Positions 16,630-41,800 of a stretch of DNA of 64,000 bases are shown here, one piece after another. How positions within the stretch are numbered: position 1 is the stretch's first letter; each line of letters begins with the position of its first letter. Both the position numbers and the translations under genes were made by a program. The notes below the pieces were generated by a model that had not been told where the DNA came from, did not search any database, and saw only the letters and a program-made list of their open reading frames with translations. This DNA comes from Candidatus Pacearchaeota archaeon (lineage in GTDB: Archaea > Nanobdellota > Nanobdellia > Pacearchaeales > GW2011-AR1), in NCBI GenBank assembly GCA_016188825.1, contig JACPHA010000005.1, positions 45 to 64,044 of the forward strand, given 5' to 3'.

Positions 16630-19600
16630 ATGATTAATGACTTGAAGAGAAAAATAATAGAACTGAAAAAAAATAGAGTGTTGGCTGTTAGAAATAAAGA
16701 GAAAATCATTCAAATTGCTAAAAAATTATTTTTGGATTATCAAAAAGGCAAGATAACAGAAGAAGAATATAAGGAAGAACTGAAGAAAAGTTTCGGCGGG
16801 AAAGAGGTAAAAGAATGGATTGAATATTATGATGTGTACATTGAGCAGTGCACCGGACAGATTGAATTTTATGGGTATAAATTAATGCAGGAGAAGACAA
16901 GAGCATTGACAAAGAAATTTGTTTCTTTTGTTTTAATTCTTGTTTTGTTTTTGATTCTGTTTTTTGTCTATTTACAACTGCAAAAACAGGTTTTTTTTGC
17001 TCCTATTACCGAAACCTATGTTGATAATTTGAATTTGTTTTATAATGAAAGTGCCGAATATGTTTGGAAACCGGAAAATGAAGGAAGAATCAACGGCGTG
17101 AAATTATCTGGTTTAATAGAAGGCGACGGCGAGGTTAAAGTTTATTTTGAGGATAAATTAATTTTGGACAGCAAGAATTTAGAAATCACCGAGGGAAAAA
17201 TAATAAGTGGAAACACAGTCTATAATAATTTAGATAATACAAGCGAAAATAATAATTTTAGTTCAGATAATATTTACGGCGGCGATGTTAATTTTTCTGG
17301 CAGCAGCGAGAATTTTGTTAGTAATCAGGCACAAGTTGAGAATACAATAAAGAAATTTAGTGAAATATGCGAAGAAACTTGTGACTTGAGTGAATTTAAT
17401 TTTAGTTCTGGAAATTATAAACTAAGAATTGAGATAAACGGAAACGCAAAGGTAAGAATTGATAATTTAAGTTATGGAATTTTTACAAAGGTAAGAATTG
17501 ATAATTTAAGTTATGGAATTTTTAAAGAAGTAGCAAAGGCAGAGGTTAAAGAGACTGCCCAAAGAGAGGAAAAAACTGCAAAAGGGAAAAAGGTTAATTT
17601 TGATGGCTTGATTCAGGGAGATTTAATTTCTACGGAAATTCCAGAGAGTTGGAATGTAAAAGATAAGAGCAAATTAAAAGTTTATTGGAAAGAAGGAGGG
17701 GAAGAAATTGATTTTGATGCTGTTGACAATAATAATGACGGAATTATCGACGAGCTTTCTTGGGAGAGTTCTCAGGGCGGAACTCAGACGTTTGAAATAA
17801 TTGTCATAACAAAAGCAGAGCATTTGGATTCTAATAAAGAATTTATTTCTGATATTTACGATTCCGTGAAGGAACTAGACGGGATTTGGAGCGAGGAGAT
17901 TCCAGACAAACATTATATAAGAGTTAAATTTGAAAGAAAATTGACAAACACGAATGATATTACAATTTATCCTCGAAAAATTAGCGGAAATCCAAGAATT
18001 GAGATTTATGAAATTAATGGGACTTCAACGATAGCTTCGTTTGACACTTTGAAAGATAATGAATATAACAAGGTTTATTTGACTTCATTGCAGAACAGCC
18101 AAGATAGTTTTGACCTTTTGGTTTTAGACGGAGCAATTGAGATTGAGCATATTGTGGATCCGAGCGCATCGCCGGGAAATGGAGTTGATTTAAGAGCGCA
18201 AGCTTGTGCTAGACAAAATCAACAAGGAAGTCAAAATACATTTGATTTAGCTTGTTTTGGAACATATCCTAATTCAACATGTTCCAGTTCTGGGGATAGA
18301 TTAAGCTGTGATGATGGAATTGTCGAAACCGCAACAACTTTCACAGGCACCTACGGAGGGATTAATGCCTCTTTTTATAATAGTTCAATAACAAACTGCG
18401 TTCAAATTGTGCAGGTATTTTTGTGTTATAATTTTTGGGGCAGTGCTCCTAATCAACATTCCTGTGAGGTTGGAGTTGATTCAGACGGGGGAGCTTCTTG
18501 GAGTAGTTTCAGTGTATCATGTTTTGGTGGTGATAGTGGAATAAGTTGTACTAACTTTACAGCAGGTCAAAATTGGCAGTGCAGCAATTTCTTTGGAGCG
18601 AACGGAACAAGTGCATTGGCAAAGGCACAAGCATTCAAGCAGGGCGGGGGCGGAATAAGGTCATGGAACTTTGATGTTTTATTCTTTAATTTAACTTATA
18701 CAGCGGATACAACACCTCCGCAAGTCACAATAATAGATCCTCAGAATAATTTTTATAACACTTCCTTTATTTACTTTAATATTTCTACTAATGAAAACAG
18801 CACTGCAAATTATAGTTTAGACGGCGGAAGAACAAATATTTCAATGAGCGCAAATGCATCTTTAACTGGTTTTACGGCTTTTAATAATTCAATTGCAGAT
18901 GGAATTTATACAGTTAATTATTATGTTAGAGATATTTATGGAAACTCTAATAACACGGAAAATGTAACATTTACAGTTGACACCACTGCTCCAACAGCAA
19001 ATTATGTTTCTCCGACTGAAAATTCTGGAGTTGCAAGAAACAGAGATTATATTGAGGTTAATGTTACAGCATCTGATTCTGGCGTTGGATTAGATAGCAT
19101 TTTGATAAGATTGTATAACTCTTCTCAAAATCAAATAAATAGCTCAACAACTTCATCTCCAAATTATATTAATTTTTCCGGCTTATCTGATGGATTATAT
19201 TTCTACAATACAACAGCAAATGATACTTTAAACAACAAAGTTGACTTAACAACAAGGAATATTACTTTGGATAGAACATTTCCTTTAATTTCTTATGGAG
19301 TTGGCACTGAAAATGACAATGCTGTTGTAAATAGAGACTGGATTTATGTTAATGTCACATTCTTAGAGATTAATTTTGCAAATATAACTTTCTTGTTGGT
19401 TAATGATTTTGGAATTGTTAATTCAACTACCCACACTACAGAAATTTATGAAATAAATTGGACAAATTTGCCTGCAGGGAATTATACTTACAATGTTTCA
19501 ATTTATGACCTCGCGGGAAACTTTAATTCAACTGCAACAAGAAAAATTAATTTGTCTGCCAGCGCCGGAAATTCCGCGCCAGAAATAATTTTTGTCGGTT

Positions 19601-20934
19601 TGGTAAATGATAGCTTTACTCCTTTGGGAAGTGCAACGCCGTTGGAAAGCAATGCGAGAAATGTAAGTTTTGTTTTCACTGCTTATGATGGGAATGGCGC
19701 AGGAAATTTAAACGGCAGCACAGCACAAGCAAGATTTCAGAGGACAGGGCAGATAACAAGAGAGAATTTAACTTGCTCTGAAATTTCAGGGCAAAACACA
19801 ACAAGCACAAAGAATTATAGTTGCACAATCGGAATGTGGTACTTCGATCAATCAGGAAATTGGATTGTAAATGCGACGATAAAAGACAATTCAAATGCAA
19901 TGGCGGAGAACTCATCAGCACAGTTCTTTTATGCAACTCTCGGCACTTTTGCTTTTTCACCTAAATCATTCGGGTTTGGAATTTTATTGCCCGGAGAGAT
20001 TAATAAATTGGCTTTGGAAGCGATGCTGATTAACAATACTGGAAATGCAAATTCTTCAAGTTTGAACATAACTGCTATTAATTTGTTGGGAGAGCAGGAT
20101 AGCAATTATATGATTCCTGCAGAAAACTTTACGGTTCATATTTCTGCTTTCTGTGATGTTGGGACAAGGATGCAAAATGGTACGAATGTTTCTGTTATCG
20201 GATCTTTATTGCCTCCAGGGAACAATTCGTTAAATTATAGGAATGAAACTTCAGGGCAGGAAGAATTGTATTTTTGTATTGAAGAAGTTCCAAACAGCAT
20301 TATTTCACAGGATTATTCAACAAGAATTGGCGGCTCTTGGGAGATTTTTATTTTTGTTGCGCCTTTTGTTATAAGAAGGAAGAGGAAAAAACATGGAAAA
20401 GAAATTAATGAAAAAATTGAAGTTGACAAAGAAGAGCTTCTTGATTTGTTGGGAGATAAATTAGAAGAATTGTTAATTTTAGTTAAGGAAAGAAAGATTA
20501 AGCGGGAAGAAAAAGAAATTATTAAGAAGGAGAAAATGGAGAAGAAAGAAATTGAAGTTCCTTTGGGAGTATTTAGAGAGAAAGCTGGAGCGGCGGAAGT
20601 ATTATGTAAATATCTGAGAGAAAACACTGGCTTGAAATTTGTTGAAATCGCAGAATTATTGAACAGAGACAGAAGGACAATAGGAGCCAATTACAAGAAT
20701 GCAGTTAGGAGAATAAAGAACAAGATAAAGATTGACAAAACAGGAGAGGAAATTTATATACCAATAGAAATTTTGGCAAACAGGAAATTGAGTATTTTAG
20801 AATCTGTCGTTCATTACTTGAGAGAAAAAGGCTTGAGAAATTCTGAAATAGCGGGCATGCTTAATAGAGACCCGAGGAATGTTTGGACTTTGTACTCAAG
20901 GGCAGTAAAGAAATTAAGGAAGAGTAATATTTAA
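16630..20934 (+). CDS. Giant two-TM surface protein with cytoplasmic C-terminal tandem HTH (cassette 1, gene 1)
   Basis: 1,434 aa. In order: a Lys/Glu-rich N-terminal ~95 aa; TM1 FVSFVLILVLFLILFFVYL (~16915-16985); a ~1,150 aa Asn/Cys-rich middle part full of N-x-S/T sequons; TM2 WEIFIFVAPFVI (~20338-20373) followed by RRKRKKHGK (positive-inside); then two HTH repeats. The last ~290 ectodomain residues are homologous to the signal-peptide protein encoded at 20980, which supports an extracellular location. Confidence 0.85.
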   Translation: MINDLKRKIIELKKNRVLAVRNKEKIIQIAKKLFLDYQKGKITEEEYKEELKKSFGGKEVKEWIEYYDVYIEQCTGQIEFYGYKLMQEKTRALTKKFVSFVLILVLFLILFFVYLQLQKQVFFAPITETYVDNLNLFYNESAEYVWKPENEGRINGVKLSGLIEGDGEVKVYFEDKLILDSKNLEITEGKIISGNTVYNNLDNTSENNNFSSDNIYGGDVNFSGSSENFVSNQAQVENTIKKFSEICEETCDLSEFNFSSGNYKLRIEINGNAKVRIDNLSYGIFTKVRIDNLSYGIFKEVAKAEVKETAQREEKTAKGKKVNFDGLIQGDLISTEIPESWNVKDKSKLKVYWKEGGEEIDFDAVDNNNDGIIDELSWESSQGGTQTFEIIVITKAEHLDSNKEFISDIYDSVKELDGIWSEEIPDKHYIRVKFERKLTNTNDITIYPRKISGNPRIEIYEINGTSTIASFDTLKDNEYNKVYLTSLQNSQDSFDLLVLDGAIEIEHIVDPSASPGNGVDLRAQACARQNQQGSQNTFDLACFGTYPNSTCSSSGDRLSCDDGIVETATTFTGTYGGINASFYNSSITNCVQIVQVFLCYNFWGSAPNQHSCEVGVDSDGGASWSSFSVSCFGGDSGISCTNFTAGQNWQCSNFFGANGTSALAKAQAFKQGGGGIRSWNFDVLFFNLTYTADTTPPQVTIIDPQNNFYNTSFIYFNISTNENSTANYSLDGGRTNISMSANASLTGFTAFNNSIADGIYTVNYYVRDIYGNSNNTENVTFTVDTTAPTANYVSPTENSGVARNRDYIEVNVTASDSGVGLDSILIRLYNSSQNQINSSTTSSPNYINFSGLSDGLYFYNTTANDTLNNKVDLTTRNITLDRTFPLISYGVGTENDNAVVNRDWIYVNVTFLEINFANITFLLVNDFGIVNSTTHTTEIYEINWTNLPAGNYTYNVSIYDLAGNFNSTATRKINLSASAGNSAPEIIFVGLVNDSFTPLGSATPLESNARNVSFVFTAYDGNGAGNLNGSTAQARFQRTGQITRENLTCSEISGQNTTSTKNYSCTIGMWYFDQSGNWIVNATIKDNSNAMAENSSAQFFYATLGTFAFSPKSFGFGILLPGEINKLALEAMLINNTGNANSSSLNITAINLLGEQDSNYMIPAENFTVHISAFCDVGTRMQNGTNVSVIGSLLPPGNNSLNYRNETSGQEELYFCIEEVPNSIISQDYSTRIGGSWEIFIFVAPFVIRRKRKKHGKEINEKIEVDKEELLDLLGDKLEELLILVKERKIKREEKEIIKKEKMEKKEIEVPLGVFREKAGAAEVLCKYLRENTGLKFVEIAELLNRDRRTIGANYKNAVRRIKNKIKIDKTGEEIYIPIEILANRKLSILESVVHYLREKGLRNSEIAGMLNRDPRNVWTLYSRAVKKLRKSNI
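17447..17524 (+). repeat. Perfect 39 bp tandem duplication inside cassette-1 gene 1
   Basis: caaaggtaagaattgataatttaagttatggaattttta occurs at 17447-17485 and again at 17486-17524 (protein KVRIDNLSYGIFT / KVRIDNLSYGIFK). The paralog at 25435-25473 has one copy. Confidence 0.95.
20560..20931 (+). other. Tandem HTH domains (sigma-70 region 4 / LuxR-GerE-like) of the 1,434 aa protein
   Basis: AAEVLCKYLRENTGLKFVEIAELLNRDRRTIGANYKNAVRRIKNK and ILESVVHYLREKGLRNSEIAGMLNRDPRNVWTLYSRAVKKLRK. The pattern h-L-E-x(4)-L-x-E-x-G-x(3)-EIA-x-L-x-R-x(2)-R-T/N-V-W-x(2)-Y-x-R-A-x-KKL matches the sigma70_r4/GerE helix-turn-helix layout. Confidence 0.7.
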
Positions 20935-20979
20935 AAGTGTAAATTAGTTAGTTAATAATAGGAGAAACAAAAAGAGGAC

Positions 20980-21918
20980 ATGGAAAAGACAAAAATTATT
21001 TATTTTTTTATTATGTTTGTTGTTATCGCTTTGTTTTTGATTAATTTTGTTTCTGCTAGTTTTGGTGATTGGCTTAGAGAATTGTTTGGAGGAGAGCCGC
21101 AACTTGCGCCATTTAATCTTACTGTAACTGTTGGGAATACTCCGCCCAATATAACTTTTGTTATTGCTCCCGGAGCTTCGCCAGTAGAAAACGGAACTTC
21201 TTTTGTCAATGTTATTTTCACAGCATTTGACCAAAATGGAGCAGGAGATTTAAATAGCAGTACAGCGCAAGCAAGATTTCAGAGGACAGGGCAGATAACA
21301 AGAGAGAATTTAACTTGTGCTGAAGTTTTAGGACAGGCAACAACGAACACGAAGAACTATAGTTGCACAATCGGAATGTTGTACTTCGATCAATCTGGAA
21401 ATTGGATTGTAAATGCGACGATAAAAGACAATTCTAATGCAATGGCGGAGAATTCCAGCGCAATATTTTCATATGGGACTTTTATTGGCACATTCTTTTC
21501 TCCTAAACAAATGTCGTGGGATTCATTAAGCGCCGGAGCCGCTAATGTACCCTCGGGCAATAATCCCATGCTTTTGAATAATACAGGCAATGTTAACATT
21601 AATTATACTAATGGCAACTTTAATATTACCGCTATTGATTTGGAGATAGAAAATCCTGGAAGCGGCGAATATATATATGCCGGAAACTTCAGCGTTGATA
21701 TAAGTGCTGCAGGATGTTTAGGAACACAAATGGCAAATGGAACTTCAAGAGCAATAGTAAATGCCATCTTACCACCGGGAAACAATTCATTAAATTATAG
21801 AAATGATAGTTCAGGACAGGAAGAATTATACTTCTGCATAACCGCCTTAAGCGGAACTTTATCACCTGGAACATATTCAGCTTTGAAAGGAGGCTCATGG
21901 AAACTTGATTATTTGTAA
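20980..21918 (+). CDS. Secreted Asn-rich protein, free-standing paralog of the membrane-proximal ectodomain of the upstream gene (cassette 1, gene 2)
   Basis: 312 aa. Signal peptide IIYFFIMFVVIALFLINFVSA followed by SFGDW. Blocks are identical or nearly identical to 19726-19910 of the upstream gene (e.g. 21268-21317 = 19726-19775, 50/50 nt). No TM or HTH at the C-terminus. Confidence 0.8.
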   Translation: MEKTKIIYFFIMFVVIALFLINFVSASFGDWLRELFGGEPQLAPFNLTVTVGNTPPNITFVIAPGASPVENGTSFVNVIFTAFDQNGAGDLNSSTAQARFQRTGQITRENLTCAEVLGQATTNTKNYSCTIGMLYFDQSGNWIVNATIKDNSNAMAENSSAIFSYGTFIGTFFSPKQMSWDSLSAGAANVPSGNNPMLLNNTGNVNINYTNGNFNITAIDLEIENPGSGEYIYAGNFSVDISAAGCLGTQMANGTSRAIVNAILPPGNNSLNYRNDSSGQEELYFCITALSGTLSPGTYSALKGGSWKLDYL

Positions 21919-21919
21919 A

Positions 21920-22585
21920 ATGATAAAAAGTAATTCAATTATAAAGTTCGGAATTTGTAGTTTGTTTTTGATTATTATTTTGAGCTCGGGAGTAATTTCC
22001 CCAGGAGTTGCTTCTCCGCCCTATGGCCCTGAGAGCCCCCTAGAACTTGTGCCAGGAGAGAGTAAGAGTTTAGATTTTATCTTGCAAAATGCCGGCGGAG
22101 AAGATATTAAATTTAGAGTAACTTTGACACAAGGAGAGGCGATTGCAAGGCTAACAGATAATAATTTGGAGTATCTTGTTCCTGCCGGAAGAACAGACGT
22201 CAAAGTTCCTGTTTTGGTCAGCATTCCAGAAGAGGCAGTTTTAGGAAGCGAACACACGGTTGGTATTTCTGTTGAGGAAATCCCTGTTACAAGCGAAGGA
22301 ACTTTACAGTTTGCAACCCGCTACGGCAGTTCTTTTCCTGTAGTTGTTAAGGCTTTTTCGCCAGGAGAGGCGGGTGGAGAAACAGAAGAGGGATTGAGCA
22401 CAGGGCTTTTGATTGGAATTGCAATTGGAATTTTGGTTTTGTTAATAATAATTTTAGTTGTCGTTTTGAAGAGAAGAAGTAAAGCAGGAAGCATGATGGC
22501 AGGAACTGGGCAGACAGAGGCTCAAATGCAGACAAGCGGAGAAATGGAAGATGAAAGGAAAGGACCTGTTTATTCTTTGAAGTGA
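21920..22585 (+). CDS. C-terminally anchored single beta-sandwich surface protein (cassette 1, gene 3)
   Basis: The ORF track starts at TTG 21905; ATG 21920 lies 1 nt after the upstream stop. In order: signal peptide, PGESKSLDFILQNAGGEDIKFRV-type strand pattern, Gly/Glu linker, TM LLIGIAIGILVLLIIILVVVL, then KRRSK. Confidence 0.7.
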   Translation: MIKSNSIIKFGICSLFLIIILSSGVISPGVASPPYGPESPLELVPGESKSLDFILQNAGGEDIKFRVTLTQGEAIARLTDNNLEYLVPAGRTDVKVPVLVSIPEEAVLGSEHTVGISVEEIPVTSEGTLQFATRYGSSFPVVVKAFSPGEAGGETEEGLSTGLLIGIAIGILVLLIIILVVVLKRRSKAGSMMAGTGQTEAQMQTSGEMEDERKGPVYSLK

Positions 22586-23012: not shown

Positions 23013-23486
23013 TCAACATTTCACAATATTTTTTTCTCCGAGTTTGCAGGTATAATAATATAAGGAGAGAGTTTTTGGGTTTTTTGAAGATTCTTCAGAG
23101 AAGAAGTAGGTTTTTGTTGTTCCGGGAGCAAGGATTTCACAGCCAGGACAGGAATTTGTGTTTTCGCAAATCCATGATGACTCCGAATTTTCATAACTGA
23201 TTATGAATGTTAAAGAGTTGATATTGATGTTTTCAGAAGATCTTGTTAGCGTTGCTTCTGTTTCATTTGTCTCTTGACTGAAGCAAACATTATTTATTGT
23301 TATGGGATTTTTTATCTGCAAATCAATGCAATTAAATTCTGGAGAAAGGGTTTTTGTGCCAATTGGTTTTATTAGAGTGTTATATAATAAAAATGCCGCC
23401 GCGATTATAATTAATACTAGAGATAATGTTATGACTATTTCAGCCAAACCCTTTTTATTTAATTTTTCTATTTTCATATTCTGCAT
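23013..23486 (-). CDS. Type IV pilin-like protein (class III signal peptide)
   Basis: N-terminus MQNMKIEKLNKKG/LAEIVITLSLVLIIIAAAFLLY: a short basic region, Gly, then ~22 hydrophobic residues, as in archaeal prepilins. 13 nt overlap with the upstream protease gene. Confidence 0.55.
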   Translation of the reverse strand: MQNMKIEKLNKKGLAEIVITLSLVLIIIAAAFLLYNTLIKPIGTKTLSPEFNCIDLQIKNPITINNVCFSQETNETEATLTRSSENININSLTFIISYENSESSWICENTNSCPGCEILAPGTTKTYFFSEESSKNPKTLSLYYYTCKLGEKNIVKC

Positions 23487-24589
23487 GGTCTTGCTCCGAT
23501 ATCATTTAGTTTAAGTTCTCCTATTTTTCCGTTATAAATTATTTGAAGTTTTGCTGCTTTTTCTAATATAGGTATTTTCAATATAAATTCTCCAGAGTTC
23601 TCGAATATTTCTCCAGTTAAATCAGTGTTTGCTTCTGTTGCAGGGGAATCTGTGAAAATTAATTCTGCGTTGAAATCTCCAGAATGAATAACTTGGCCGT
23701 CTTTTAAGATAACATTAAATTTAAATTCTCCGAAGCCATTAGATCCCACGCAGCCATCTGCGATTTCCCTTGAAGTTATTCTAACTTCTTGGTTTTGGTA
23801 GACACCAGTTATAAGGAAATATTTTTGATTTTCGCAGTCTAGTTCCGGAGAAATTACAGAGCCGGTGATTTTTGAATTTTTTTCTGTGTTTTCATTTATT
23901 CTGGATTGCACGAGAAAAGAATTAAACTTGCCGTAGGCATTTGATTCAAGAGTTCTCATGACTCCGTTTTCAATTGACCTTGTGTAATCATCTCTTGAGC
24001 AGCCTTCGAAACAGCCGTCTTTTATTTCTGAGAATTCAGAGCAGGATGAAACGCAATTTTTTGCTTCTCTTGGCAAACGCGCAGGGACATATTCTTCTGC
24101 GAGATTTGCAAACGCGTGTCCGAATTCATGAGTCAGGACAGATGAAGGGTGCCTTGAATTTATGCTCATTACGTTCATGTAAGAAGAGCTTCTTATTTCT
24201 GGAGACTGCTTTTCAACGACGACGACGTAATCATTAGGGCATGAAGAAGCTGTTTTAATTAAATCTTTTGAATAACATAGCAAAGCAATTTCCTTGTATA
24301 GTTTGCAATCCGGCTTATAGGAATCAATGTAGAAGAAGTTAAATTTGTCCTTGTTTTCTCTTATGGGGGTTGTTTCCATTAGGTGATTTGTGTATCTCTC
24401 TGCAGTGTTTTTATCTGAAAAGAAAACAAGGTTGATTTTATCATTTCCATTAAACCTGATTGCTTTGCATTCCTGCAATTGGACTGGAGAGCTCTTTATG
24501 TTTAAACTATATATGAATATAATGAGGAAAATAAAGGAAACGGACAAGGCCGATACTATTAATGTTATTAATAATTTTCTTTTTTCCAT
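23474..24589 (-). CDS. Anchored/secreted zinc metalloprotease, M64 (IgA-peptidase)-like
   Basis: N-terminal signal anchor. HEFGHAFANLAEEY is HExxH plus a downstream Glu, arranged as remembered for peptidase family M64. An INLVFFSD block lies near the N-terminus and there are several Cys. Confidence 0.65.
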   Translation of the reverse strand: MEKRKLLITLIVSALSVSFIFLIIFIYSLNIKSSPVQLQECKAIRFNGNDKINLVFFSDKNTAERYTNHLMETTPIRENKDKFNFFYIDSYKPDCKLYKEIALLCYSKDLIKTASSCPNDYVVVVEKQSPEIRSSSYMNVMSINSRHPSSVLTHEFGHAFANLAEEYVPARLPREAKNCVSSCSEFSEIKDGCFEGCSRDDYTRSIENGVMRTLESNAYGKFNSFLVQSRINENTEKNSKITGSVISPELDCENQKYFLITGVYQNQEVRITSREIADGCVGSNGFGEFKFNVILKDGQVIHSGDFNAELIFTDSPATEANTDLTGEIFENSGEFILKIPILEKAAKLQIIYNGKIGELKLNDIGARPCRI

Positions 24590-24803: not shown

Positions 24804-27800
24804 ATGAGCAAAATAAAAAATAAAATTTTTGAATTGCAGGAGAAAAAGAGAGAGATTTTTGTTAAAATCGCCCAATTAAAAAAAGAGAAAGATAAATCAG
24901 ATTATAATATCCAGTTAAGAACTTATCATGCACAGAAAGAATGGGTTGAGAGCGAGATAAGGCGAGAAAAAAGAAAATCTGTTAGAAATATTTTAATTCC
25001 GATATTTTTCATTTCTTTATTTTTAGTTGTGATTTTTCTTTATGTATTTTTTAAACCAACGCTGACAGGGTTTGCAGTTTTTGAAGGAGTTAGTAAGATT
25101 TATACAAAACAATTGGATATTTGGGAGAATAATAGTGAGGAATATACAATTGAAATTAATGAGAGTGGAAGAATCAACAGCGTGAAATTATCTGGTTTAA
25201 TAGAAGGCGACGGCGAAGTCAAAGTTTATTTTGAGGATAAATTAATTCTTTATAGCAATAATCTGAAAGTTAGCGAGACCAAGTTAATAAATAAAACTCT
25301 AGATGATAACCAAACACAAGAAGTTGAAGTTGCAATAAAGAAATTTAGTGAAATATGCGAAGAAACTTGTGACTTGAGTGAATTTAATTTTAGTTCTGGA
25401 AATTATAAACTAAGAATTGAGATAAACGGAAACGCAAAGGTAAGAATTGATAATTTAAGTTATGGAATTTTTAGAGAAGAGAAAATTGAAAGAGGGAAAA
25501 GAGCAGAGTTTGTTGAGCTGGTTGAGGGAGATATAATTTCGACGGAAATTCCGGAAAGCTGGAATATAAAAAATAAAAATAAAATAAAAATTTATTGGGA
25601 AGAAGGAGGAAAAGAAATTGATTTTGACGTCGGTGATAATGATAATGATGGAGTTATTGATGAAGTTTCTTGGACAAGCCCGCAGGGCGGAACTCAGACG
25701 TTTGAAATAATTGTCATAACAAAAGCAGAGCATTTGGATTCTAATAAAGAATTTATTTCTGATATTTACGAGGATGTTCGCGAGCTGGATGGAAAGTGGA
25801 GCGAGGAAATTCCATCAGGGGATTTTGTAAGAGTTAAATTTGAAAGAAAATTGACAAACACGAATGATATTACAATTTATCCTCGAAAAATTAGTGGAAA
25901 TCCAAGAATTGAGATTTATGAAATTAACGGGACTTCAACGATAGCTTCGTTTGACACTTTGAAAGATAATGAGTATAACAAAGTATTTTTGACTTCATTA
26001 CAAGGTGAGCAGGATAGTTTTGACCTTTTGGTTTTAGACGGAGCAATTGAGATTGAGCATATTATTGACCCTACACAACTATTCTTTGAGAATTTTGAAG
26101 CTGGGAATTTAAATAATTGGAATAACGTAGCTTTATGGAATAATGCATCAGACCGAAAGGACACGGGGACATATAGCGCTAAATGCACAGGTGCTAATGA
26201 TTGTGATATGAGTCTTGCTACTGCCTTAGATACTTCAACTGCTTCAGAAGTTAATGTAACTTTCAGATTTAATGATGATGATTTGGATGGAGTAGGCGAC
26301 GCACCATATTATTGGAATGACAGTTCTGGAAATTGGGATTTGATAGGAGAACTTGATTCAGCCACAGAAGATACATGGCTTACTTTTTCAAATTCATCAA
26401 CTGATTCGCAATATTTCCATAAAGGATTTAACATAAGGTTTACTACCACTCTTGATGGTGGTGGTGGCGTTGAAAATCTTTGGCTTGATAATATAAATGT
26501 TTCTTATACTCCCGATACAACTCCTCCAATAGTAACAATAAATCAGCCAACTCCTCCCTATGTGAATATCTCAACATCAAGCGTTGACTTCAATGTAACA
26601 ATAGACGAGAATGGCGATACAGCTAGATACACATTAGACAGTGGAGCAAACAATGTAACAATGCAAAAAAACGGCCAGAGAGACTTTAATCATACAAATT
26701 CCAGCATAGCAGATGGCTTGTATACTATAAGATTTTATGTAAATGATACAGCAGGCAATTTAAATGATACAGCAAATAGAACATTTACAGTTGACACCAC
26801 TTCTCCAACAGCAAATTATGTTTCTCCGACTGAAAATTCTGGAGCTGCAAGAAACAGAGATTATATTGAGGTTAATGTTACAGCATCTGATTCTGGCGTT
26901 GGATTAGATAGCATTTTGATAAGATTGTATAACTCTTCTCAAAATCAAATAAATAGCTCAACAACAACTTCATCTCCAAATTATATTAATTTTTCAGGCT
27001 TATCTGACGGATTATATTTCTACAATGCAACAGCAAATGATACTTTAAACAACAAAGTTGACTTAACAACAAGGAATATTACTTTGGATAGAACATTTCC
27101 TTTAATTTCTTATGGAGTTGGCACAGCAGACGACGGAGCAAATTTAACACAATCAAATATTTATGTTAATGTCTCGGTTACAGAAACAAACTTTGCAAAT
27201 ATAACTTTCTTGTTGAGGAATGATACCGCAACAGTAAATTCTACAACATTTACAACCGCAACTTATGAAATTAACTGGACAGGTCTTCCATTGACAAATT
27301 ATACATACAATGTTTCAATTTATGATACGGCCGGGAATTTTAATTCAACAGCTACGAGGAAGATTAATTTATCAGAGGCAGCGCTAAATTCAGCTCCAAC
27401 AATAACGTTTGTAAGCATTATGCCTGCGACAGACCCAAGTGAAAACACCATTAAGAATATTTTATTTAATTTTACAGCTACAGATGCAGATGGTGGAGGA
27501 AATATTAATATTAGTACAGCGCAAGCAAGATTCCAACTTACTGGACAGACAACAAGGTCCAATTTAACTTGCGCAAATATTACCGGTGTTTTTAGCAGTA
27601 ATAATATGAACTTCACTTGCACTGTTGGAATGTGGTATTTTGACTATCCAGGAGCATGGACAGTTAATGTTACAATTTCTGATAATAGCGCAGCAAATGG
27701 CGAGAATTCAACAACAACATTTACTTATAATACTCTGAATGCGATGGTAATGTCTCCCAATGCTTTAACATGGGCAAGTTTATCAGCCGGGGCTTTGAAC

Positions 27801-28742
27801 ACGCTTTCTAACAATGACCCAATCTTGATAAACAACACAGGAAACAAGAATGTAACAAACATTACTATAAATGCGATAAATTTGATTGGTGAGCAGAATG
27901 GTGCTTATAATATTCCTGCGGCGAATTTTACAGTCAGCATAACCGATTCTTGTGATTCCGGAACAATTATGGGAAATAACTCTCAAATTCAAGTTGGCAG
28001 TGCAATTTTGCCGAGAGGGAATAACTCATTAAATTATGGGAACGAAACTTCAGGACAGGAGCAGTTTTACTTTTGTTTGGAAGAAGTTCCGCAAAGCATT
28101 CCTTCACAACCATATTCAACATCTGCAGGAGGCGCATGGACCATAACAATTCTTGCGACAGTGTTTGCTGTTGCCGGGAGCGCTAGAAGAAAGAGGAAGA
28201 AGAAAATTAAGGATGATAAGCTAGTAGATGTTTTGGGCTCGATAATAGACGAGATAAAAGAAAAACATTCTTTGAGTAAGGCAGAAATACTAAACTTGGT
28301 TGTGAAAGAATTAAAAGAGAAGTATAAGATTAGCAATAGTGAGATAGCTGAGATTCTTGAACTGAAGCAGAAGGACAATATTCCAATAACAATATTTTCC
28401 AGCAAACTTGGAGGTTTAGAAGCACTGGTTAAATATTTGAAGGAGAATGTTGAGATGAGATTCAGTGAGATTGCTAAAGTGCTGGGAAGAGATGACAGGA
28501 CGGTATGGACTGCATACAAAAAAGCATCAGAAAAAGAAAAAGAGAGGTTGAAAGTTAAGGAAACAGAAGTTTTGCTGCCGATTTCAATATTTAAAGACAG
28601 GAGAACGACTGTGCTTGAAGCTGCTATAATGCATCTTAAAGAAAAGGGCATGAAATATAGTGAAATAGGAGAATTGCTTGGAAGAGACCAGAGAAATGTC
28701 TGGGCTATTTATTCGAGAGCAGTTAAGAAGTTGAGGAAATAA
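24804..28742 (+). CDS. Giant two-TM surface protein with cytoplasmic C-terminal tandem HTH (cassette 2, gene 1)
   Basis: 1,312 aa paralog of 16630..20934. TM1 ILIPIFFISLFLVVIFLYVFF (~24990-25055). TM2 WTITILATVFAVAG (~28138-28180) followed by SARRKRKKK. Two HTH repeats follow. Several blocks are 100% identical to the cassette-1 gene. Confidence 0.85.
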   Translation: MSKIKNKIFELQEKKREIFVKIAQLKKEKDKSDYNIQLRTYHAQKEWVESEIRREKRKSVRNILIPIFFISLFLVVIFLYVFFKPTLTGFAVFEGVSKIYTKQLDIWENNSEEYTIEINESGRINSVKLSGLIEGDGEVKVYFEDKLILYSNNLKVSETKLINKTLDDNQTQEVEVAIKKFSEICEETCDLSEFNFSSGNYKLRIEINGNAKVRIDNLSYGIFREEKIERGKRAEFVELVEGDIISTEIPESWNIKNKNKIKIYWEEGGKEIDFDVGDNDNDGVIDEVSWTSPQGGTQTFEIIVITKAEHLDSNKEFISDIYEDVRELDGKWSEEIPSGDFVRVKFERKLTNTNDITIYPRKISGNPRIEIYEINGTSTIASFDTLKDNEYNKVFLTSLQGEQDSFDLLVLDGAIEIEHIIDPTQLFFENFEAGNLNNWNNVALWNNASDRKDTGTYSAKCTGANDCDMSLATALDTSTASEVNVTFRFNDDDLDGVGDAPYYWNDSSGNWDLIGELDSATEDTWLTFSNSSTDSQYFHKGFNIRFTTTLDGGGGVENLWLDNINVSYTPDTTPPIVTINQPTPPYVNISTSSVDFNVTIDENGDTARYTLDSGANNVTMQKNGQRDFNHTNSSIADGLYTIRFYVNDTAGNLNDTANRTFTVDTTSPTANYVSPTENSGAARNRDYIEVNVTASDSGVGLDSILIRLYNSSQNQINSSTTTSSPNYINFSGLSDGLYFYNATANDTLNNKVDLTTRNITLDRTFPLISYGVGTADDGANLTQSNIYVNVSVTETNFANITFLLRNDTATVNSTTFTTATYEINWTGLPLTNYTYNVSIYDTAGNFNSTATRKINLSEAALNSAPTITFVSIMPATDPSENTIKNILFNFTATDADGGGNINISTAQARFQLTGQTTRSNLTCANITGVFSSNNMNFTCTVGMWYFDYPGAWTVNVTISDNSAANGENSTTTFTYNTLNAMVMSPNALTWASLSAGALNTLSNNDPILINNTGNKNVTNITINAINLIGEQNGAYNIPAANFTVSITDSCDSGTIMGNNSQIQVGSAILPRGNNSLNYGNETSGQEQFYFCLEEVPQSIPSQPYSTSAGGAWTITILATVFAVAGSARRKRKKKIKDDKLVDVLGSIIDEIKEKHSLSKAEILNLVVKELKEKYKISNSEIAEILELKQKDNIPITIFSSKLGGLEALVKYLKENVEMRFSEIAKVLGRDDRTVWTAYKKASEKEKERLKVKETEVLLPISIFKDRRTTVLEAAIMHLKEKGMKYSEIGELLGRDQRNVWAIYSRAVKKLRK
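28380..28739 (+). other. Tandem HTH domains of the 1,312 aa protein
   Basis: GLEALVKYLKENVEMRFSEIAKVLGRDDRTVWTAYKKASEK and VLEAAIMHLKEKGMKYSEIGELLGRDQRNVWAIYSRAVKKLRK. Confidence 0.7.
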
Positions 28743-28845: not shown

Positions 28846-28930
28846 GGCAATAATTAAAATATTAAAAAAACCTTATTTATTATAGTCATAATGGTTATTA
28901 TCAATAATCTATTAAAAAGTTGGCGCGGTA
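28846..28930 (+). promoter_or_regulatory. Conserved ~80 bp upstream element, copy A (~118 nt before the ATG at 29048)
   Basis: ggcaataattaaaatattaaaaaaaccttatttattatagtcataatggttattatcaataatctattaaaaagttggcgcgg aligns with 53664-53743 and 57903-57981. Confidence 0.6.
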
Positions 28931-29047: not shown

Positions 29048-29983
29048 ATGGACAATAAAAAGAGTGTCTACGGAAAGATTTTGTTTTTGATTTTGATATT
29101 TGCTATTGTTTTTGCCCTTTCTTCGTCTGAATTTTTTAATTGGCCTCTTTCTTTATATAATCTTATCACTGGACGAGCAACAACTAGCACAACAAGTTTG
29201 AATATTAGCGTTACAAATACAGCACCGATAATAACCTTTGTCAGCGCGATTGCTGCGACAGATCCGACCGAAAGCAGCACAGTTAATATCAGAGTTAATT
29301 TTACAGCAAATGATGCCAATGGAGGAAGCGATCTGGATAGGTTTGGTGGGCAAGCAAGATTTCAGTTTACTGGACAGACAACAAGATCCAATTTATCATG
29401 CTCAAATGTAACAGGGGTTTTTAGCAGTAATAATATGAACTTCACTTGCACTGTTGGAATGTGGTATTTTGATGTGCCTGCCAGCTGGACTGCTAATATA
29501 ACTATAAATGATTCGGCAAATGCCAGAGGAGAGAATAGCACAACGACATTTACTTTCAATACATTAAATGCAATGGTTATGTCTCCTACGGCATTAACAT
29601 GGGCTTCTTTAAGTATAACTTCAACAAATGTAGGTTCTAATAATGATCCAATCACAATAAATAACACAGGCAATAAGAACGTGACCAATGTAACTGTTAC
29701 AGGAATTGATCTTCGTGGAGAATCAAATGGTGCATTTGCTATTTTTGCAAGAAATATTTCAGTAAATGCGGTTGATGTTTCGGATGGGTTCCTTATGTTA
29801 AATAATTCTGCTGTTCAAGTTGAAAACGCAACATTATTAAGAGGAAATAACTCATTAAATTATGGGAATGAAACTTCAGGACAGGAGCAGATTTACTTTT
29901 ACGTAGAGGCTCTTAATCCGGATTTAACATCGCAGGCATATTCAACATTGGCCGGAGGTGCATGGACTGTGACATCGCAATAA
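29048..29983 (+). CDS. Secreted Asn-rich protein, free-standing paralog of the upstream ectodomain (cassette 2, gene 2)
   Basis: 311 aa. Signal peptide ILFLILIFAIVFALSSS followed by EFFNW. 29417-29472 is identical (56/56 nt) to 27588-27643 of the upstream gene. No TM or HTH. Confidence 0.8.
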   Translation: MDNKKSVYGKILFLILIFAIVFALSSSEFFNWPLSLYNLITGRATTSTTSLNISVTNTAPIITFVSAIAATDPTESSTVNIRVNFTANDANGGSDLDRFGGQARFQFTGQTTRSNLSCSNVTGVFSSNNMNFTCTVGMWYFDVPASWTANITINDSANARGENSTTTFTFNTLNAMVMSPTALTWASLSITSTNVGSNNDPITINNTGNKNVTNVTVTGIDLRGESNGAFAIFARNISVNAVDVSDGFLMLNNSAVQVENATLLRGNNSLNYGNETSGQEQIYFYVEALNPDLTSQAYSTLAGGAWTVTSQ

Positions 29984-29984
29984 A

Positions 29985-30608
29985 ATGATGAATCACAAAA
30001 GAAATTATTTGCTTATTGGAGCATTATTATTTGTAATTATTTTTGTTTCTTACGTAGAATCAGCAGGAGTTGCTACTTCTTATTGGGAAGGATATGAGCT
30101 TAAAATGGCTCCGGGAGAGACGAGAGAAGTTTCTATGAGACTGCAAAATATGGTCGGAAGTGAAGACCTTACTTTTAGAGCAGAGCTTAAGGAGGGGGGA
30201 GAAATAGCCGTTTTAACAGATGAAAATTTAGATTATTTAGTTCCGCTTGGCAGGAACGATGTTAGAGTTAATTTGAGAATTACAATTCCTCAAGATGCTA
30301 AATTCGGAGATAAATATAATGTAAGGGTTTTGTTTAGAGAGATTAAAAGCGGAGAGGGAAAGACAGTGGAGTTTGCAACGGCCGTTGAAGGTTCTTTCCC
30401 TGTTTTGATTGTTGGAGAGGGCGAGCAGAGTCTTCAGGAAAGTCCTACAACTGGACAAATAACTGCGGAATCAGGAGCAAAAGGAAAAATAGCTATTATT
30501 TTATTAATTATTGCAGGCGTTATTGTAATAATATATTTGATTATTAAGAAAAGAAAAAAGACAGAAGATAAAAAAAGTTCTAAAACAAAGGCAGAGAAGA
30601 AATTTTAA
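29985..30608 (+). CDS. C-terminally anchored single beta-sandwich surface protein (cassette 2, gene 3)
   Basis: 207 aa paralog of 21920..22585. In order: signal peptide, PGETREVSMRLQNMVGSEDLTFRA, linker, TM IAIILLIIAGVIVIIYLII, then KKRKK. The ATG lies 1 nt after the upstream stop. Confidence 0.75.
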   Translation: MMNHKRNYLLIGALLFVIIFVSYVESAGVATSYWEGYELKMAPGETREVSMRLQNMVGSEDLTFRAELKEGGEIAVLTDENLDYLVPLGRNDVRVNLRITIPQDAKFGDKYNVRVLFREIKSGEGKTVEFATAVEGSFPVLIVGEGEQSLQESPTTGQITAESGAKGKIAIILLIIAGVIVIIYLIIKKRKKTEDKKSSKTKAEKKF

Positions 30609-35856: not shown

Positions 35857-38800
35857 TTGTCCTACACATTGGCTCATAAAAAATATACTTATAAGAATGG
35901 AAAAAGGTATGGGCCATATTTGTATGAAAATAAGAGAGTAGGAAATAAAGTTTTTACAAGATATTTAGGGCCAGCAAAAGAAGGAAAAAATTATAAAATT
36001 AACTTTAGATTTTTTTCGTACGTTTTTTTAGCTTTAATTTTGTTAGGAGGCATAATTTTTATTTTTTTAAATGTAGGGGAAATTTTTAATTTGTTATTAT
36101 CGCCTTTTGTTGGAGAAAAGCCATTTTTATCAATAGAAGATATTAATTATCAGAGAGGCGAGATTATCAAAGGAGAATTAAAGTTAAATGTTAAAGCTGG
36201 AGAGTTAATACCAAGCGATTCTAAATTAATCATTAATTTTGGTGATATAGAAAAGGAGTTTGTTTTGACAGAATTAATTGATAAAGAAACATTAGACGGG
36301 GATTTTTATATTGAGGGAAATAATTTAGATGGGTTTGGTAATGGTTTTGGAATTGTAGGTGAAAAAGAGGTTTTTCCTGAAATTGAATTTGAATTAATGA
36401 TTTTAGAAGCAGAAAAAAATGTTAGTGAAGAAATTCCAGCTGGGGGCGGTGTTGGTGAGGGAGAGGAAAATGAGACTATTGAAGAAAAGCTCATGAATGA
36501 AACACCAAAAGAGCCAGTAGAAGAACAACCCCAAGTGCCAAGTGGAGAAATTCCATCTGGAGAACAGCCGCCCGAAGTGCCTGCAGAAGAGACGCCTTCT
36601 GGGGAAGTTGTTGAGCAACCCCCCATAGAGGCGCCACCGGAGGAGCAACCACAAAAAGAAATAATTGAACAACCAATAGAGGGGGAGCAACCTTCAGAAA
36701 GCCAACCAACCGAAAGTCAGCCGAGTGAAGAAACTTCAACAGAGCCATCTTTATCTCCAGAAGAAAATATAATTTCTGGAATAGTAACCAAAGGAAACGA
36801 TTTTGTTTATGAGTTAAGTGAGGGGAAAACAGCAAAAATTATTGAAGGGAGCATTAAGATTAATGATACTCAATTAGCCGATAGCAATTTAATTTTAAGA
36901 ATAGAAGATAATAAAGTAATAATTTCAACAGAATATAGTATTAAGGAAAAAGGTTTTGGAGAGGAGTTTTTAGGGGATGAGCGAGTTGAGTTTTTAAGCA
37001 TTGATCTTGATGAACTTGGTTTTGTAGTTGAAAATGATTCTGTTTTGAAGGCAAAATTGGTTTATGAAGAGCAAACATTGGCTGAAGCAGAAGAAGAAAT
37101 AATAATCGAAGAAAAAATTGAGAAAAATATTACGGTTCCGATTGAAAACCAAACAATTACTAACATTACAATACTGGAAAATATAACAATTGAGAATGTT
37201 ACGCAATTGACTGCAGTTTTGGGACAGTCGGTTAAGTGGGTTAAATATGTGGATGCCAGTGATTCTGGAAATATAAGCATTGAATTGCCGAAAAGTGCGG
37301 AGAAGATTGATGTAAAGAAAGTTAAGAAAGAAAAGAAAGGAGATAAGGAAGAAGAAACTGAAGAGGAAGAAAAGATTGAGGGGGTAATAGAAGAAAATAT
37401 AACAGAAGAGAAAATAGAGGGCGTGGAAAATCAAACAGCTGAAGAAGTTATTAATAAAAGCTTCTCAGAGGAAGTTATTGAAAAGGAAGAAGGAAATGTT
37501 TCAGAAGAGGAAGTTGCTCTTAGCCCTCCTGAAGCAGGCTTTAGCGATTTTATTGAAGAGGAATTGGAAGATAGAAAGGAGATAACTGTTGAAGTTTCTC
37601 CTGCTGAAATTGGCAAGGTAGTTATAGAAGTTATTTATGAAACTCCTGCGCCTTATGCTGTTGAGGAGGATACAACAAGAGGGAAAAAAGTAAAAATAAT
37701 TGGCCCAAAAGACGTTCATTATGAAAATGTTTTAGCATTTACTAATTTGTCTGAAAATCTTGGTATTATTAATCCGAGTTCAATAAAAATATATTGGGTT
37801 GAAAATAATAGTTATATATATCCTGAAAATGTTAGTGATACAAACTCTAATGGAATTTACGATTATGTTTCTTGGACAATCTTAAGACTGAGCAATCAAA
37901 CATTTGAAATAATTGTCATAACAAAAGCAGAACATTTAGATGAGAATAGAACAGTCATAAGTGATATTTACGATTCCATGAAGGAACTAGACGGGATTTG
38001 GAGCGAGGAGATTCCAGACAAACATTATGTAAGAGTTAAGTTTGAGATACCGCTTGATAATAAGAGAGATATAACTATTTATCCTAGAGCGGCAAGCGGA
38101 AATCCTAAAATAGAAATTTACGAAATTAATGGAACAGAAAAGATTGCAGAGTTTAGTTCTTTAGTTGATAATGAATATAATAAAGTTTATTTGACTTCAT
38201 TGCAAAACAGTCAGGATACTTTTGATTTATTGGTTTTAGGAGGGAGTGTTGAGTTTGAGCATATTATTGACCCGAGCGCATCGCCTGGAAATGGAATTGA
38301 TTTGAGACCGCAGGCTTGCGGACTGCAAAAGCGCCAACCATCTCAAAATCTTTTTGAGAACGATTGTAATAATGAGAATTATCCGTATTTATCCAATGCA
38401 ACATATCCTTCTAATTGTGGCATTACCGGAGATAGGTTAAGTTGTGATGATGGAATAGTTCACGGTTCACTTACAGATCAAAGAGATGAATTTGCAGGAG
38501 TTAATATAACTTCCTTCAACCAAACAATAACAGATTGTATAAACATAGAGCAAGTCTTTTTATGTTATGAGTTTTGGCAGCAACAAGGAGAACGGGCGCA
38601 TACTTGCACAGTTGGCGTTGATGCAAATGGTGATGCTTCGTGGAGTGATACTTCAATTACCTGTTCAGTTAGTGAGCCCGGAGTAACGTGTACTGATGTC
38701 ACAGCATCTGAACCTTGGGAGTGTAGTAATTTCTTTGGCCCAAGTGGGACAAGAGCATTGGCAAGGGCACAGGCAAAAAGAGGTCAAGGGGCATCGGGAA

Positions 38801-41800
38801 ACAATACTTGGTATTTTGATGTTTTGTTTTTCAATGTAACTTACAGCAACAACACAGATCTAACTTCTTGTAGGGATTTAAATGAGGCGGGAGAAACTTA
38901 CAAAGTTATTAATAATATCAATGCTTTAGGAACTTGTTTCAAAATTAATGCGGATAATATAACTCTAGACGGGCAAGGATTTAATATAACTGGAAATAGA
39001 ATAGGAGATGGAGTAAATTTCACTGGAAGATTAAATATAACAATAAAGAACCTTAATATTTATAATTTCAGCAGAGGGATTTATTTTGACAAAACAAATG
39101 ACTCCTTTATTTTAGATAACGCGATTAGGAACAATTCCAACGAGGGCATTAGACTTTTCCTTTTGAGTTTTAATAATGTTATAAAAAACAACATAGTAAG
39201 CGGCAATCAACAAGATGGCATTATAATCATTTCTGCTTCAAAGAATAATACTATTGAGAATAATACAGTAAATAATAATAATCACGGGATTAGACTTTCA
39301 TCTGCTAGTGGTAATCAATTAATAAATAATAGAGTTAAATCACATTCTTCTAATGGAATTTATGTTTTGAGTAGTAATGGTAACACTTTAATAAACAACA
39401 CAATAGAATTAAGCAATTTTAATGAGCTTTCGGTTGAAGCTAGTTCAGATAATCTAATAAACGGAGGAATTATAAATAATAGCAATTCTGGGCAGAATGC
39501 GCTTTTTATATCAGGCTCCTCTTCAAGAAACAATACCTTTAACAATATTACAATCACAAACACAGACACTAGAGATTATGACATTAACTTTGCAACTGCA
39601 GGAATAAATGAAACCTACTTAATAGACATGCCACATATAGGCAATTACTCATTTGCAGGAGCAGGCGGAATTGTTATTTTCAGAAACTCACAATTTGGAG
39701 AAATAAGATTCTTACAAACAATAAACGGAACAGGAACAAATTTAACAAGAGATGTTAGAATTAGGAATAATAGTGCGGTTGTTGAAAGCGGAATTAATAA
39801 GGGATTGAATAAATCAGCGAATTTAACACTTTATGGCATAGGAAATAGGGGATTTAGTATACCAACCATATTAAGAGATTCTTCCATATGCCCTTCAAAC
39901 ATATGTTATAATTTCACTGCCTTAAATGCAACAAATGTAATATTTAATGTTACGTATTGGACTAATTATAGTATAGGAGGAGAGATAGGTTTTGAAGCAA
40001 ATTTGGACTCTTGCGATACATTGGGAGTTGCCAATACTTATTATAGAATTATTAACAACATAAGCACTCAAGGGACATGCTTCACAATCACTGCGGATAA
40101 TATAACTCTAGACGGGCAAGGATTTAATATAACTGGAAATAGAATAGGAGATGGAGTAAATGTTACTGGAAGATTAAATATAACAATAAAGAACCTTAAT
40201 ATTTATAATTTCAGCAGAGGGATTTATTTTGACAAAACAAATGACTCTCTGGTTTTCAATAACACGGCAAACAACAATTCAGGATTCTTTGGCTATGGTA
40301 TTCATTTACTTTTTTCAAATAATAATACAATAGAGAATAATACATTGAAGTCTAATGCTATAGGTATTTCTGTTAATTCTTTTTCAACCAATAACGCGTT
40401 AGTAAGGAACATATTGGTTTCTAATAATCTTTTGGGACTTGGTAAGGGAATTAGCATAGGTGGTTCTTCCGGTAAGAATATAATAGAGGAAAATATAGCA
40501 AACCTAAATATCGAGGGCATCTCAATTAGCACTGCTGGCAATCAACTAATCAATAATACAATGAACTCAAATAGTGTAATAGGTATAGGACTTACATCAG
40601 CTTCGAATAATATAATAAGTGGAGGAATAATAAATAATTCAGGAGGAAATTCTATTCGTCTCTCACAAGTATCCACAAGAAACAATACATTTAACAATGT
40701 TACAATTATAAATACAAACAAAAGTTTTTATGATATTTTCGTAACTGCTGGAATCAACGAAACCTATCTAATAGACATGCCACATATAGGCAATTACTCA
40801 TTCACTGGAGCTGGCGGAATTGTTATTTTTAAGAACAGTCAATTTGGAGAAATAAGATTCCTTCAACCAATAAACGGAACAGGAACAAATTTAACAAGAG
40901 ATGTTAGAATATTTAATAATTCTGTAGTTGTAAGAAGTGATTTAAACATTGGGCTGAACAAATCAGCCAATATTACACTTTATGGAATAGGAAATAGGGG
41001 ATTTACAAAGCCGTTGTTAATAAGAGACAACGCTTCATGTGGTAATATTTGTTATAACTTTACAGATTTAAATGCAACAAATGTAATATTTAACGTTACT
41101 TATTGGACTAATTATAGTATAGGAGGAGAGATAACAAGTTCAACCCCTCCGTATGTTATATTAAAAAAACCAGACAATAATTCGTTGTTTGGATTGGGAG
41201 TTTTTAATATTATATTAAATGCAACTGTATTTGATATAAATAATGATGCAATAGATGTATTTATTTATGGAGTTAATTCAACAGACACAACAAACTTTTA
41301 TAATTATTTGTTGCATAAACAACTTAATGTTTCTAATGGTTCAACAATCACTTATAATTTTACAGCTTTGCCGGTTGATAAGAATTCCGCTGGATTGAGA
41401 GTTTTATATCATTTTGATAATTTGTCGCAATATCAAGAGAGCGAGGCCAAATCTTATGATTTCTCCGGCAATAATAACAATGGAACATGGTTTAATGGGC
41501 CTGTTTATAATACATCAAGAGAAGGAAGTAAATTTGGTTATGCAGCACAGCTTGATGGAATAGATGACTTTATTGAGAGAAGCTCTGCTCTTGGCATAAC
41601 CAACTATCCTTTTACATTTTCTGCATGGGTAAGAAAAAATAACGACTCTGGCACGAAAGGAACAATAATTTCTTTTGGCGAGTCTCTTAGTAGCAACATA
41701 TATTATGGATTGAGAATCAACGAAAGCGGACAAGCAGAGATTTATGCTGCTGGCTCGGGTCCGGAGGGAAAAATTGGGGGATCAGCAGATTTGAGAGGCG

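Follow-up and report, generated by a model that had tools for sequence, protein, structure and literature searches.

Two paralogous three-gene cassettes lie on the + strand of a 64,000-nucleotide stretch of contig JACPHA010000005.1 from a Candidatus Pacearchaeota archaeon (hereafter the window, meaning that whole stretch), each coding for a large membrane-anchored protein (A), a smaller predicted secreted protein (S), and a small membrane protein (T). The membrane-proximal part of A and the body of S are copies of the same two-domain module, and the two copies within a cassette group with each other instead of with their counterparts in the other cassette. Ectopic gene conversion in short patches, recurring between the module-coding 3′ segment of A and the S gene next to it, would explain this pattern, and from the sequence comparisons presented here we put the probability of that reading at roughly 0.8. 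An initial annotation, made from the letters of the window and its open reading frames (ORFs), had proposed such within-cassette concerted evolution; the bootstrap values given below strongly support it, and the same A-S pairing recurs in independent genomes.

The anchored gene of the first cassette (A1, 16630-20934) and its neighbor (S1, 20980-21918) encode proteins of 1434 and 312 amino acids (aa), sizes that were already correct in the initial annotation, and the module motif begins at 19567 in A1 and at 21136 in S1. The A1 copy occupies 19567-20346, approximately 255-260 aa of predicted tandem beta-sandwich divided into a first domain (D1, ~19567-19930) and a second (D2, ~19931-20346), the S1 copy occupies 21136-21915, and the A1 module matches S1 with an E value of 2e-82 (tblastn). 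Over the complete module the two share 64% of nucleotides (nt) and 59% of amino acids, but an ungapped tract of 252 nt (19662-19913 in A1, 21204-21455 in S1) reaches 86.5% nt identity, a smaller patch of 71 nt (20209-20279 in A1, 21769-21839 in S1), which spans the GNNSLNY...GQEELYFC motif of D2, reaches 81.7%, and away from these two segments identity is 35-60%. The description of the two domains as near-identical therefore holds for the tract and the patch and not for the full modules. Within the tract lie two perfect runs, one of 50 nt (19726-19775 = 21268-21317), which had been reported and which a base-by-base check found identical at 50 of 50 positions, and another of 38 nt (19855-19892 = 21397-21434). 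A further block said to differ at few positions does so (4 mismatches in 96), but its partner is 21357-21452, at an offset of 1542, and not a segment beginning at 21358. The peptide strings that had been quoted are correct as well, including the more divergent strings of cassette 2, and across the conversion tract A1 and the anchored protein of that cassette (A2) share 52-77% of nucleotides.

These runs exceed what chance would give. In a runs test of the GENECONV type, as called for by the initial annotation, with mismatches shuffled inside codon-position classes, the longest identical A1-S1 run of 50 nt compares with a permuted mean of 13 nt and a maximum of 28-30 (p ≤ 0.0005). The second cassette, comprising A2 (24804-28742, 1312 aa, module at 27384-28145) and its predicted secreted neighbor S2 (29048-29983, 311 aa, module at 29216-29980), has a perfect run of 56 nt (27588-27643 in A2 = 29417-29472 in S2) at the same significance (p ≤ 0.0005), the permutation maximum being 28-38 across the 50- and 56-nt tests. 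Synonymous divergence between A1 and S1 (dS, Nei-Gojobori) is 0.50 in alignment columns 38-118 and 1.0 to >2.5 in the flanks. In the same columns the A1-A2, S1-S2, and cross pairs are synonymously saturated, with proportions of synonymous differences (pS) of 0.66-0.77 against 0.37 within cassette 1, and because of this saturation between cassettes, constraint at the protein level cannot account for the A1-S1 identity in DNA. One island of divergence interrupts the tract: in the codon alignment, the Cys-Cys loop of A1 (CSEISGQNTTSTKNYSC, 19774-19824; counterpart 21316-21366 in S1) carries 13 mismatches in the 42 nt of 19774-19815, synonymous and non-synonymous alike. This loop, which lies between invariant cysteines (C113 and C129 of S1), is the most variable segment of the family (entropy 2.76 vs. 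a mean of 2.09 bits), and in A2 the perfect 56-nt run spans its second half.

Neighbor-joining (NJ) bootstrap trees of the four window copies, with outgroups from other genomes, joined A1 to S1 with 100% support for the whole module, 100% for D1, and 87% for D2, and joined A2 to S2 with 86%, 78%, and 35%, respectively. The groupings by gene type, which the initial annotation had named as the contrary outcome, received 0-8% (A1 with A2) and 0% (S1 with S2). Informative nucleotide sites among the four copies comprise 74 that unite the members of a cassette, 36 that unite copies by type, and 11 that cross. Columns 30-120 hold most of the within-cassette signal, with 42 such sites and 6 by-type sites, whereas the later C-terminal half is about tied (~28 vs. 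~28), so the four-copy pattern is a mosaic rather than uniform sisterhood.

Homogenization had also been said to act within cassettes and not between them, which is correct for the shared module only. Elsewhere A1 and A2 have exchanged segments: tracts at A1 aa 231-309, 430-509, and 776-894 are 88-100% identical to A2 in nucleotides and include exact runs of 141, 120, and 97 nt. Alternating with these tracts are stretches (aa 1-150; aa 510-775, where the two have a different "head"; the module; and the tail) that are unrelated or 40-55% identical.

Beyond the window, a scan of a genome collection, a metagenome scan, and contig look-up together yielded 36 related loci, on contigs labelled Woesearchaeota, Pacearchaeota, and Nanoarchaeota. 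The architecture is conserved in these loci. A runs from an N-terminal cytoplasmic helix through a first transmembrane segment (TM1), a long variable ectodomain, the module, and a short hydrophobic span with a poly-basic cluster to two helix-turn-helix (HTH) units, and downstream of it come S (~300 aa) and T (~205 aa). We compared A with S in 20 cassettes that have both, taken from independent assemblies. In 10 of the 20, no sequence of the set is closer to the A module than its own S, and in 4 others (L017/L020 and L021/L024) the sole closer sequence is the A ortholog from a sister strain, so that, sister-strain orthologs aside, paralogs of one genome are more alike than orthologs of different genomes in 14 of 20 cassettes. 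Six (L005, L006, L025, L028, L030, and L031) have no excess A-S identity, at 21-41% aa.

The L021/L024 quartet gives the contrast between domains within one set of genes. In D1, 40 informative sites are within-cassette and none by-type, with A-S nt identity of 79-100%, whereas D2 has 2 within-cassette and 98 by-type sites, with A-S identity of 29-64%; these site patterns place the conversion after the strain split and its sharp border at the D1/D2 junction. In L024 itself, D1 is 92-100% identical in nucleotides and D2 29-64%. Homogenization affects D2 in L004, L022, and L032, and D1 in the first cassette of the window as well as in L021, L024, L009, L002, and L013. A consistent preference for one domain across lineages, which would point to a fixed interface, was sought and not found (Wilcoxon p = 0.81).

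A profile search of 1.84 billion representatives returned 1965 proteins (clusters at 50% identity) at E ≤ 1e-3 and 809 at E ≤ 1e-30. In this analysis the family turned up only in genomes labelled DPANN. Among the 161 best matches with a near-full-length module, 100 are of the ~300-aa form and 55 are long anchored proteins. In an NJ tree of 155 module sequences, A and S are intermixed, requiring 33 changes of state, where shuffled labels give 45 and a clean split into two clades would need only 1. No column within the module was found to discriminate A from S (mutual information ~0.05-0.09 bits vs. a shuffled mean of 0.06); discriminating columns are confined to the S-specific leader and linker, whose consensus, SAG...KITGxATS, is conserved across genomes. 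By their leader and by synteny with T, the S genes are orthologous to one another, whereas their module bodies follow the local A, and this discordance favors conversion over repeated re-duplication.

If gene conversion is responsible, it would proceed by non-reciprocal homologous recombination between directly repeated paralogous segments approximately 1.5 kb apart, the A 3′ segment and the S body. Adjacency and residual homology would suffice to sustain the process, and it would lapse once homology decays. The alignments show different patches to have been struck in different lineages, apparently for long enough to leave the A and S modules without type-specific residues. We infer that conversion is tolerated since the module fills one structural role in A and S alike and is functionally interchangeable between them, with exact matching not demanded.

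The module, S, and T match no Pfam or NCBIfam family. An AlphaFold2 (AF2) model of S1 built from a 17-sequence alignment, with a mean predicted local distance difference test score (pLDDT) of 82.8, consists of two consecutive all-beta sandwich domains (residues ~55-165 and ~170-312), and a Foldseek search of this model against the PDB returned Fab light chains, the Vibrio cholerae biofilm scaffold RbmA, and the immunoglobulin (Ig) domain plus carbohydrate-binding module of sialidase, with probabilities of 0.95-0.99, TM-scores of 0.2-0.3, and 6-12% identity. As modeled, the shared module is a tandem Ig-like beta-sandwich, a resemblance at the level of fold only. It is like Fab chains and RbmA in having two successive beta-sandwich domains of ~100-140 aa each; it is unlike them in that its matches are fold-level and lie outside the Pfam Ig families, and Fab chains and RbmA are known to dimerize.

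A more demanding explanation, and the one the initial annotation inclined towards, is that selection for matching between A and S maintains the conversion, whether the two form a homotypic or pseudo-symmetric heterodimer, act as decoy and receptor, or complement each other's strands. The pairing does persist across genomes with Woesearchaeota, Pacearchaeota, and Nanoarchaeota labels, the module lacks A- or S-specific residues family-wide, A1/A2 exchange ends at the module border so that each module stays specific to its cassette, and tandem Ig-like folds often dimerize, the best fold matches here including Fab chains and RbmA. As a strict rule, however, matching is not supported, because 30% of cassettes are not homogenized, among them adjacent pairs such as L006, the homogenized domain varies by lineage, L024 combines a nearly identical D1 with a very divergent D2, and in the middle of their own tract A1 and S1 have different versions of the hypervariable Cys-Cys loop. 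Strand complementation is not suggested either, since the beta-sandwiches in the AF2 model of S1 are complete, with no strand missing. A softer version is kept alive by the pairing in deep lineages and by the halt of A1-A2 exchange upstream of the module, and we regard selection for matching overall as possible but doubtful.

If each lineage had instead acquired its S separately and not long ago, through a partial duplication of A at its 3′ end, or if A had captured an S copy, then ordinary divergence would suffice and no conversion would be needed for A-S pairs to be sister sequences in most genomes, as they are. Such an origin is very unlikely given the mosaic identity, with sharp borders between low-dS tracts and saturated flanks inside a single gene pair, the conservation across genomes of the S-specific signal peptide and linker and of T synteny, and the sister strains L021 and L024, whose D2 is orthologous while their D1 is strain-specific. 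An artefact of metagenome assembly, by repeat collapse or strain chimerism, is highly improbable in our estimation: the exact A1-A2 runs of up to 141 nt could confuse assemblers in those regions, but the perfect A-S runs are only 38-56 nt long, both ORFs are intact and in frame, and more than 10 independent assemblies show the same pattern. The homogenized locus L009, in particular, was recovered again from an independent assembly (L010) at 100% identity over A, S, and T and from one more (L011) at 99.9%, which speaks against an artefact, and assembly collapse thus appears unlikely from the contigs at hand. That the identical runs reflect purifying selection and codon bias on a conserved motif, with no exchange of DNA, is barely credible; the motifs QARFQxTGQxTRxNLxC and YFD are indeed conserved in protein across the family, but the synonymous saturation between cassettes in the very columns where A1 and S1 agree, and the different positions of tracts in other genomes, stand against it. 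Diversity-generating retroelements (DGRs), which pair a template with a variable repeat, have been reported to be common in DPANN archaea, and a near-identical repeat pair of 100-250 nt in a surface-protein gene is what one might expect of them. We rejected this candidate, whose probability is close to negligible, on finding that A1-S1 mismatches fall on all four bases (A 12, G 9, C 7, T 6) rather than on adenine alone and that each copy is part of a coding sequence; a reverse transcriptase was not found among the window ORFs scanned against Pfam.

Several points nevertheless weigh against gene conversion as we have drawn it. In the columns of the 20209-20279 patch all four copies are 72-88% identical, and conservation of the protein may contribute to the A1-S1 identity there. 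The A1/A2 exchange, at 94-100% identity, halts just upstream of the module, for which a purely neutral view has no obvious explanation and which would also fit cassette-specific co-adaptation. In addition, the window is apparently a DPANN contig assembled from metagenome data, which counts in favor of the artefact reading.

Conversion between adjacent paralogs is a textbook mechanism and already known. Interlocus gene conversion acts on tufA/tufB in enterobacteria, and Archibald and Roger reportedly found it among paralogous subunits of the archaeal thermosome, a chaperonin. The A-S pairs resemble these cases in that paralogs within a genome are closer than orthologs, low-dS tracts are patchy and sharply bordered, and the phylogeny is discordant along the gene, and thermosome paralogs moreover co-assemble. 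They differ in that one partner is the 3′ domain of a multidomain gene for 1300-3000 aa while the other is a stand-alone gene for 300 aa, in that homogenization is partial and lapses in ~30% of cassettes, and in that the family is uncharacterized. Surface proteins also undergo segmental conversion in Neisseria (pilE/pilS) and Borrelia (vlsE). In Plasmodium, MSP paralogs show segmental gene conversion among surface proteins (PMC10919680). With these three systems the A-S pairs share a location at the cell surface, short converted segments, and mosaic genes, and the mosaics among A1, A2, and a giant ORF described below look similar; unlike them, the A-S pairs draw on no store of silent cassettes, each partner is an intact ORF that looks expressed, and the net effect is to homogenize and not to diversify.

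The A protein itself would be a two-pass surface receptor, with a variable mosaic distal ectodomain and a bipartite sigma-70-region-4-like HTH as its cytoplasmic tail. From N to C terminus, A1 consists of a cytoplasmic helix, TM1 (16918-16980), the mosaic ectodomain, the shared module, a second transmembrane span (TM2, WEIFIFVAPFVI, 20338-20391) with a basic stop-transfer cluster (RRKRKK) immediately after it, and a double HTH in the cytoplasm; Pfam Big_13 and Sigma70_r4_2 score above their gathering thresholds, and the same architecture is found in loci L001-L009. The final beta-strand of D2 leads directly into the short hydrophobic span of TM2, and every A-type homolog has a stretch of W-x-hydrophobic pattern followed by poly-basic residues. 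This second span is unusually short for a transmembrane segment, with 11-17 hydrophobic residues after the conserved Trp and then 5-9 Arg/Lys, and AF2 models it with a pLDDT below 50. By the positive-inside rule we infer an N-in/C-in, two-pass topology.

The cytoplasmic tail of A1 (20557-20922) has an HTH of sigma-70 region 4 or Tfx type twice over, at 20557-20718 and at 20758-20922. The repeating HTH unit of 55 aa is arranged in tandem, with four units in some homologs, and 36 of 40 complete A-type tails carry an RDxRT[IV]W motif. Against PF08281 (Sigma70_r4_2) the tails of the two cassettes score 29.0 and 33.3 bits (cutoff 25.7), and the AF2 model (pLDDT 84) has a long helix and two HTH units that fit region 4 of SigR, SigD, and SigE at 1.7-4.2 Å, while a sequence search of the PDB gave one marginal match only, the archaeal Tfx-like regulator 8hnp. 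We considered and rejected a bona fide sigma factor, as the tail has only region-4-like units and no region 2, and NCBIfam sigma models score far below their cutoffs; the organism, moreover, is an archaeon, as its ribosomal protein L15e indicates.

Membrane-tethered one-component regulators with a co-encoded extracytoplasmic partner, such as ToxR/ToxS, TcpP/TcpH, and CadC, offer the nearest functional comparison. Like ToxR/ToxS, the A-S pair would have a DNA-binding HTH tethered to the cytoplasmic side of the membrane in a protein whose ectodomain is large and sensory, the extracytoplasmic partner being encoded by the neighboring gene. It is unlike ToxR in that the HTH is sigma-70-region-4/Tfx-like, duplicated, and C-terminal after a second transmembrane segment, where the ToxR type is an OmpR winged helix, and unlike ToxR/ToxS in that S is paralogous to the receptor's own module and the system is archaeal. 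Judged from its architecture alone, the likeness may point to a way of working and does not imply membership.

S would be a free copy of the membrane-proximal module. In S1, whose ATG has GAGGA upstream, a signal peptide (20980-21057) precedes the S-specific conserved linker and the module, and the protein is predicted to be secreted rather than signal-anchored. T would be a small single-pass membrane protein: T1 (21920-22585, ~221 aa) begins with a signal peptide, continues with an Ig-like domain and a linker rich in Gly/Glu, and ends in a C-terminal transmembrane segment and a basic tail, and its counterpart T2 (29985-30608) has 207 aa. In both cassettes the ATG of T lies 1 nt past the stop codon of S (TAA-A-ATG, 21916-21922 and 29981-29987), an arrangement that suggests translational coupling of S and T, and the TTG start at 21905 assigned to T1 by the ORF finder is probably too early. 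T1 is syntenic in L009, L012, and cassette 2. A PDB sequence search of T gave nothing significant, and T was rejected as a third paralog of the module, the hhalign match being limited to the signal peptide. By analogy with other tandem Ig modules, in which such packing is common, the most plausible physical model would have S, possibly held by T, packing beside the module of A.

Sharing of segments is observed beyond the cassettes as well and reaches into an ORF of 4462 aa (35857-49245) with beta-helix/NosD repeats and Laminin_G_3. A 425-nt segment of A1 (17784-18206) is 80% identical to 37896-38318 of this ORF, with a perfect run of 50 nt (17867 = 37979); further segments similar to it are found at 25648-26071 and at 18469-18698 (vs. 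38611-38843), and the ORF has internal exact repeats of up to 134 nt. A1 also contains a 39-nt tandem duplication at 17447-17530 (KVRIDNLSYGIFT / KVRIDNLSYGIFK), which is present as a single copy in A2 (25435-25479).

DPANN archaea live attached to other cells, and to our knowledge their surface proteins are almost wholly uncharacterized; our literature search found no description of this family, nor of gene conversion in DPANN surface proteins. If all of the above were joined, the A/S/T cassette could be a DPANN-specific contact or ligand receptor in which a T-tethered S pairs with the A module in Fab-like fashion and gates the release or activity of the double HTH of A. Selection on a pseudo-symmetric interface would then sustain A-S conversion, while conversion among A paralogs and giant surface proteins would diversify the distal heads for recognition of hosts or viruses. 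We offer this composite as speculation and consider it quite unlikely to hold in its entirety.

What is new here is an abundant uncharacterized family, conversion of an embedded domain with a stand-alone gene, and the context of a membrane-tethered double HTH. The comparisons define a large family that Pfam does not model and whose architecture of three genes is fixed, in which the two module-bearing genes appear to evolve in concert by gene conversion and the anchored members are mosaics that exchange segments with one another and with the 4462-aa surface protein. The A module and S form a concrete pair for interaction studies, and A is a candidate membrane-tethered transcription factor in archaea. 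Trees of the module track the genome rather than the type of gene, which is a warning for family phylogenies and orthology calls.

Two of the related loci depart from the usual arrangement. In L012 (2767-5488) an S-T pair stands behind a DDE_3 transposase gene and not behind A, and its S (P0002) is the closest relative of S1, at 46% identity. In L008 (926-1685) an A-type module is split across two frames at ~1200 and the tail downstream is full of stops, pointing to a pseudogene with a frameshift or else to an error of sequencing.

The window, from a DPANN archaeon of low GC content (~33%), also codes for ribosomal protein L15e, class I and II aminoacyl-tRNA synthetases, GatB/E, and a topoisomerase, the last adjoined by a gene for a tyrosine recombinase of the phage-integrase family (69-950) at the left end. 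Between the two cassettes, on the − strand (23013-24589), are encoded a 371-aa protein with a weak match to IgA-peptidase M64 (HEFGH motif) and a 157-aa membrane-anchored protein. An intergenic stretch of 56 nt upstream of S2 (28866-28921) recurs ~25 kb downstream at 53681-53736 with 82% identity and could be a repeat or a regulatory element common to both places.

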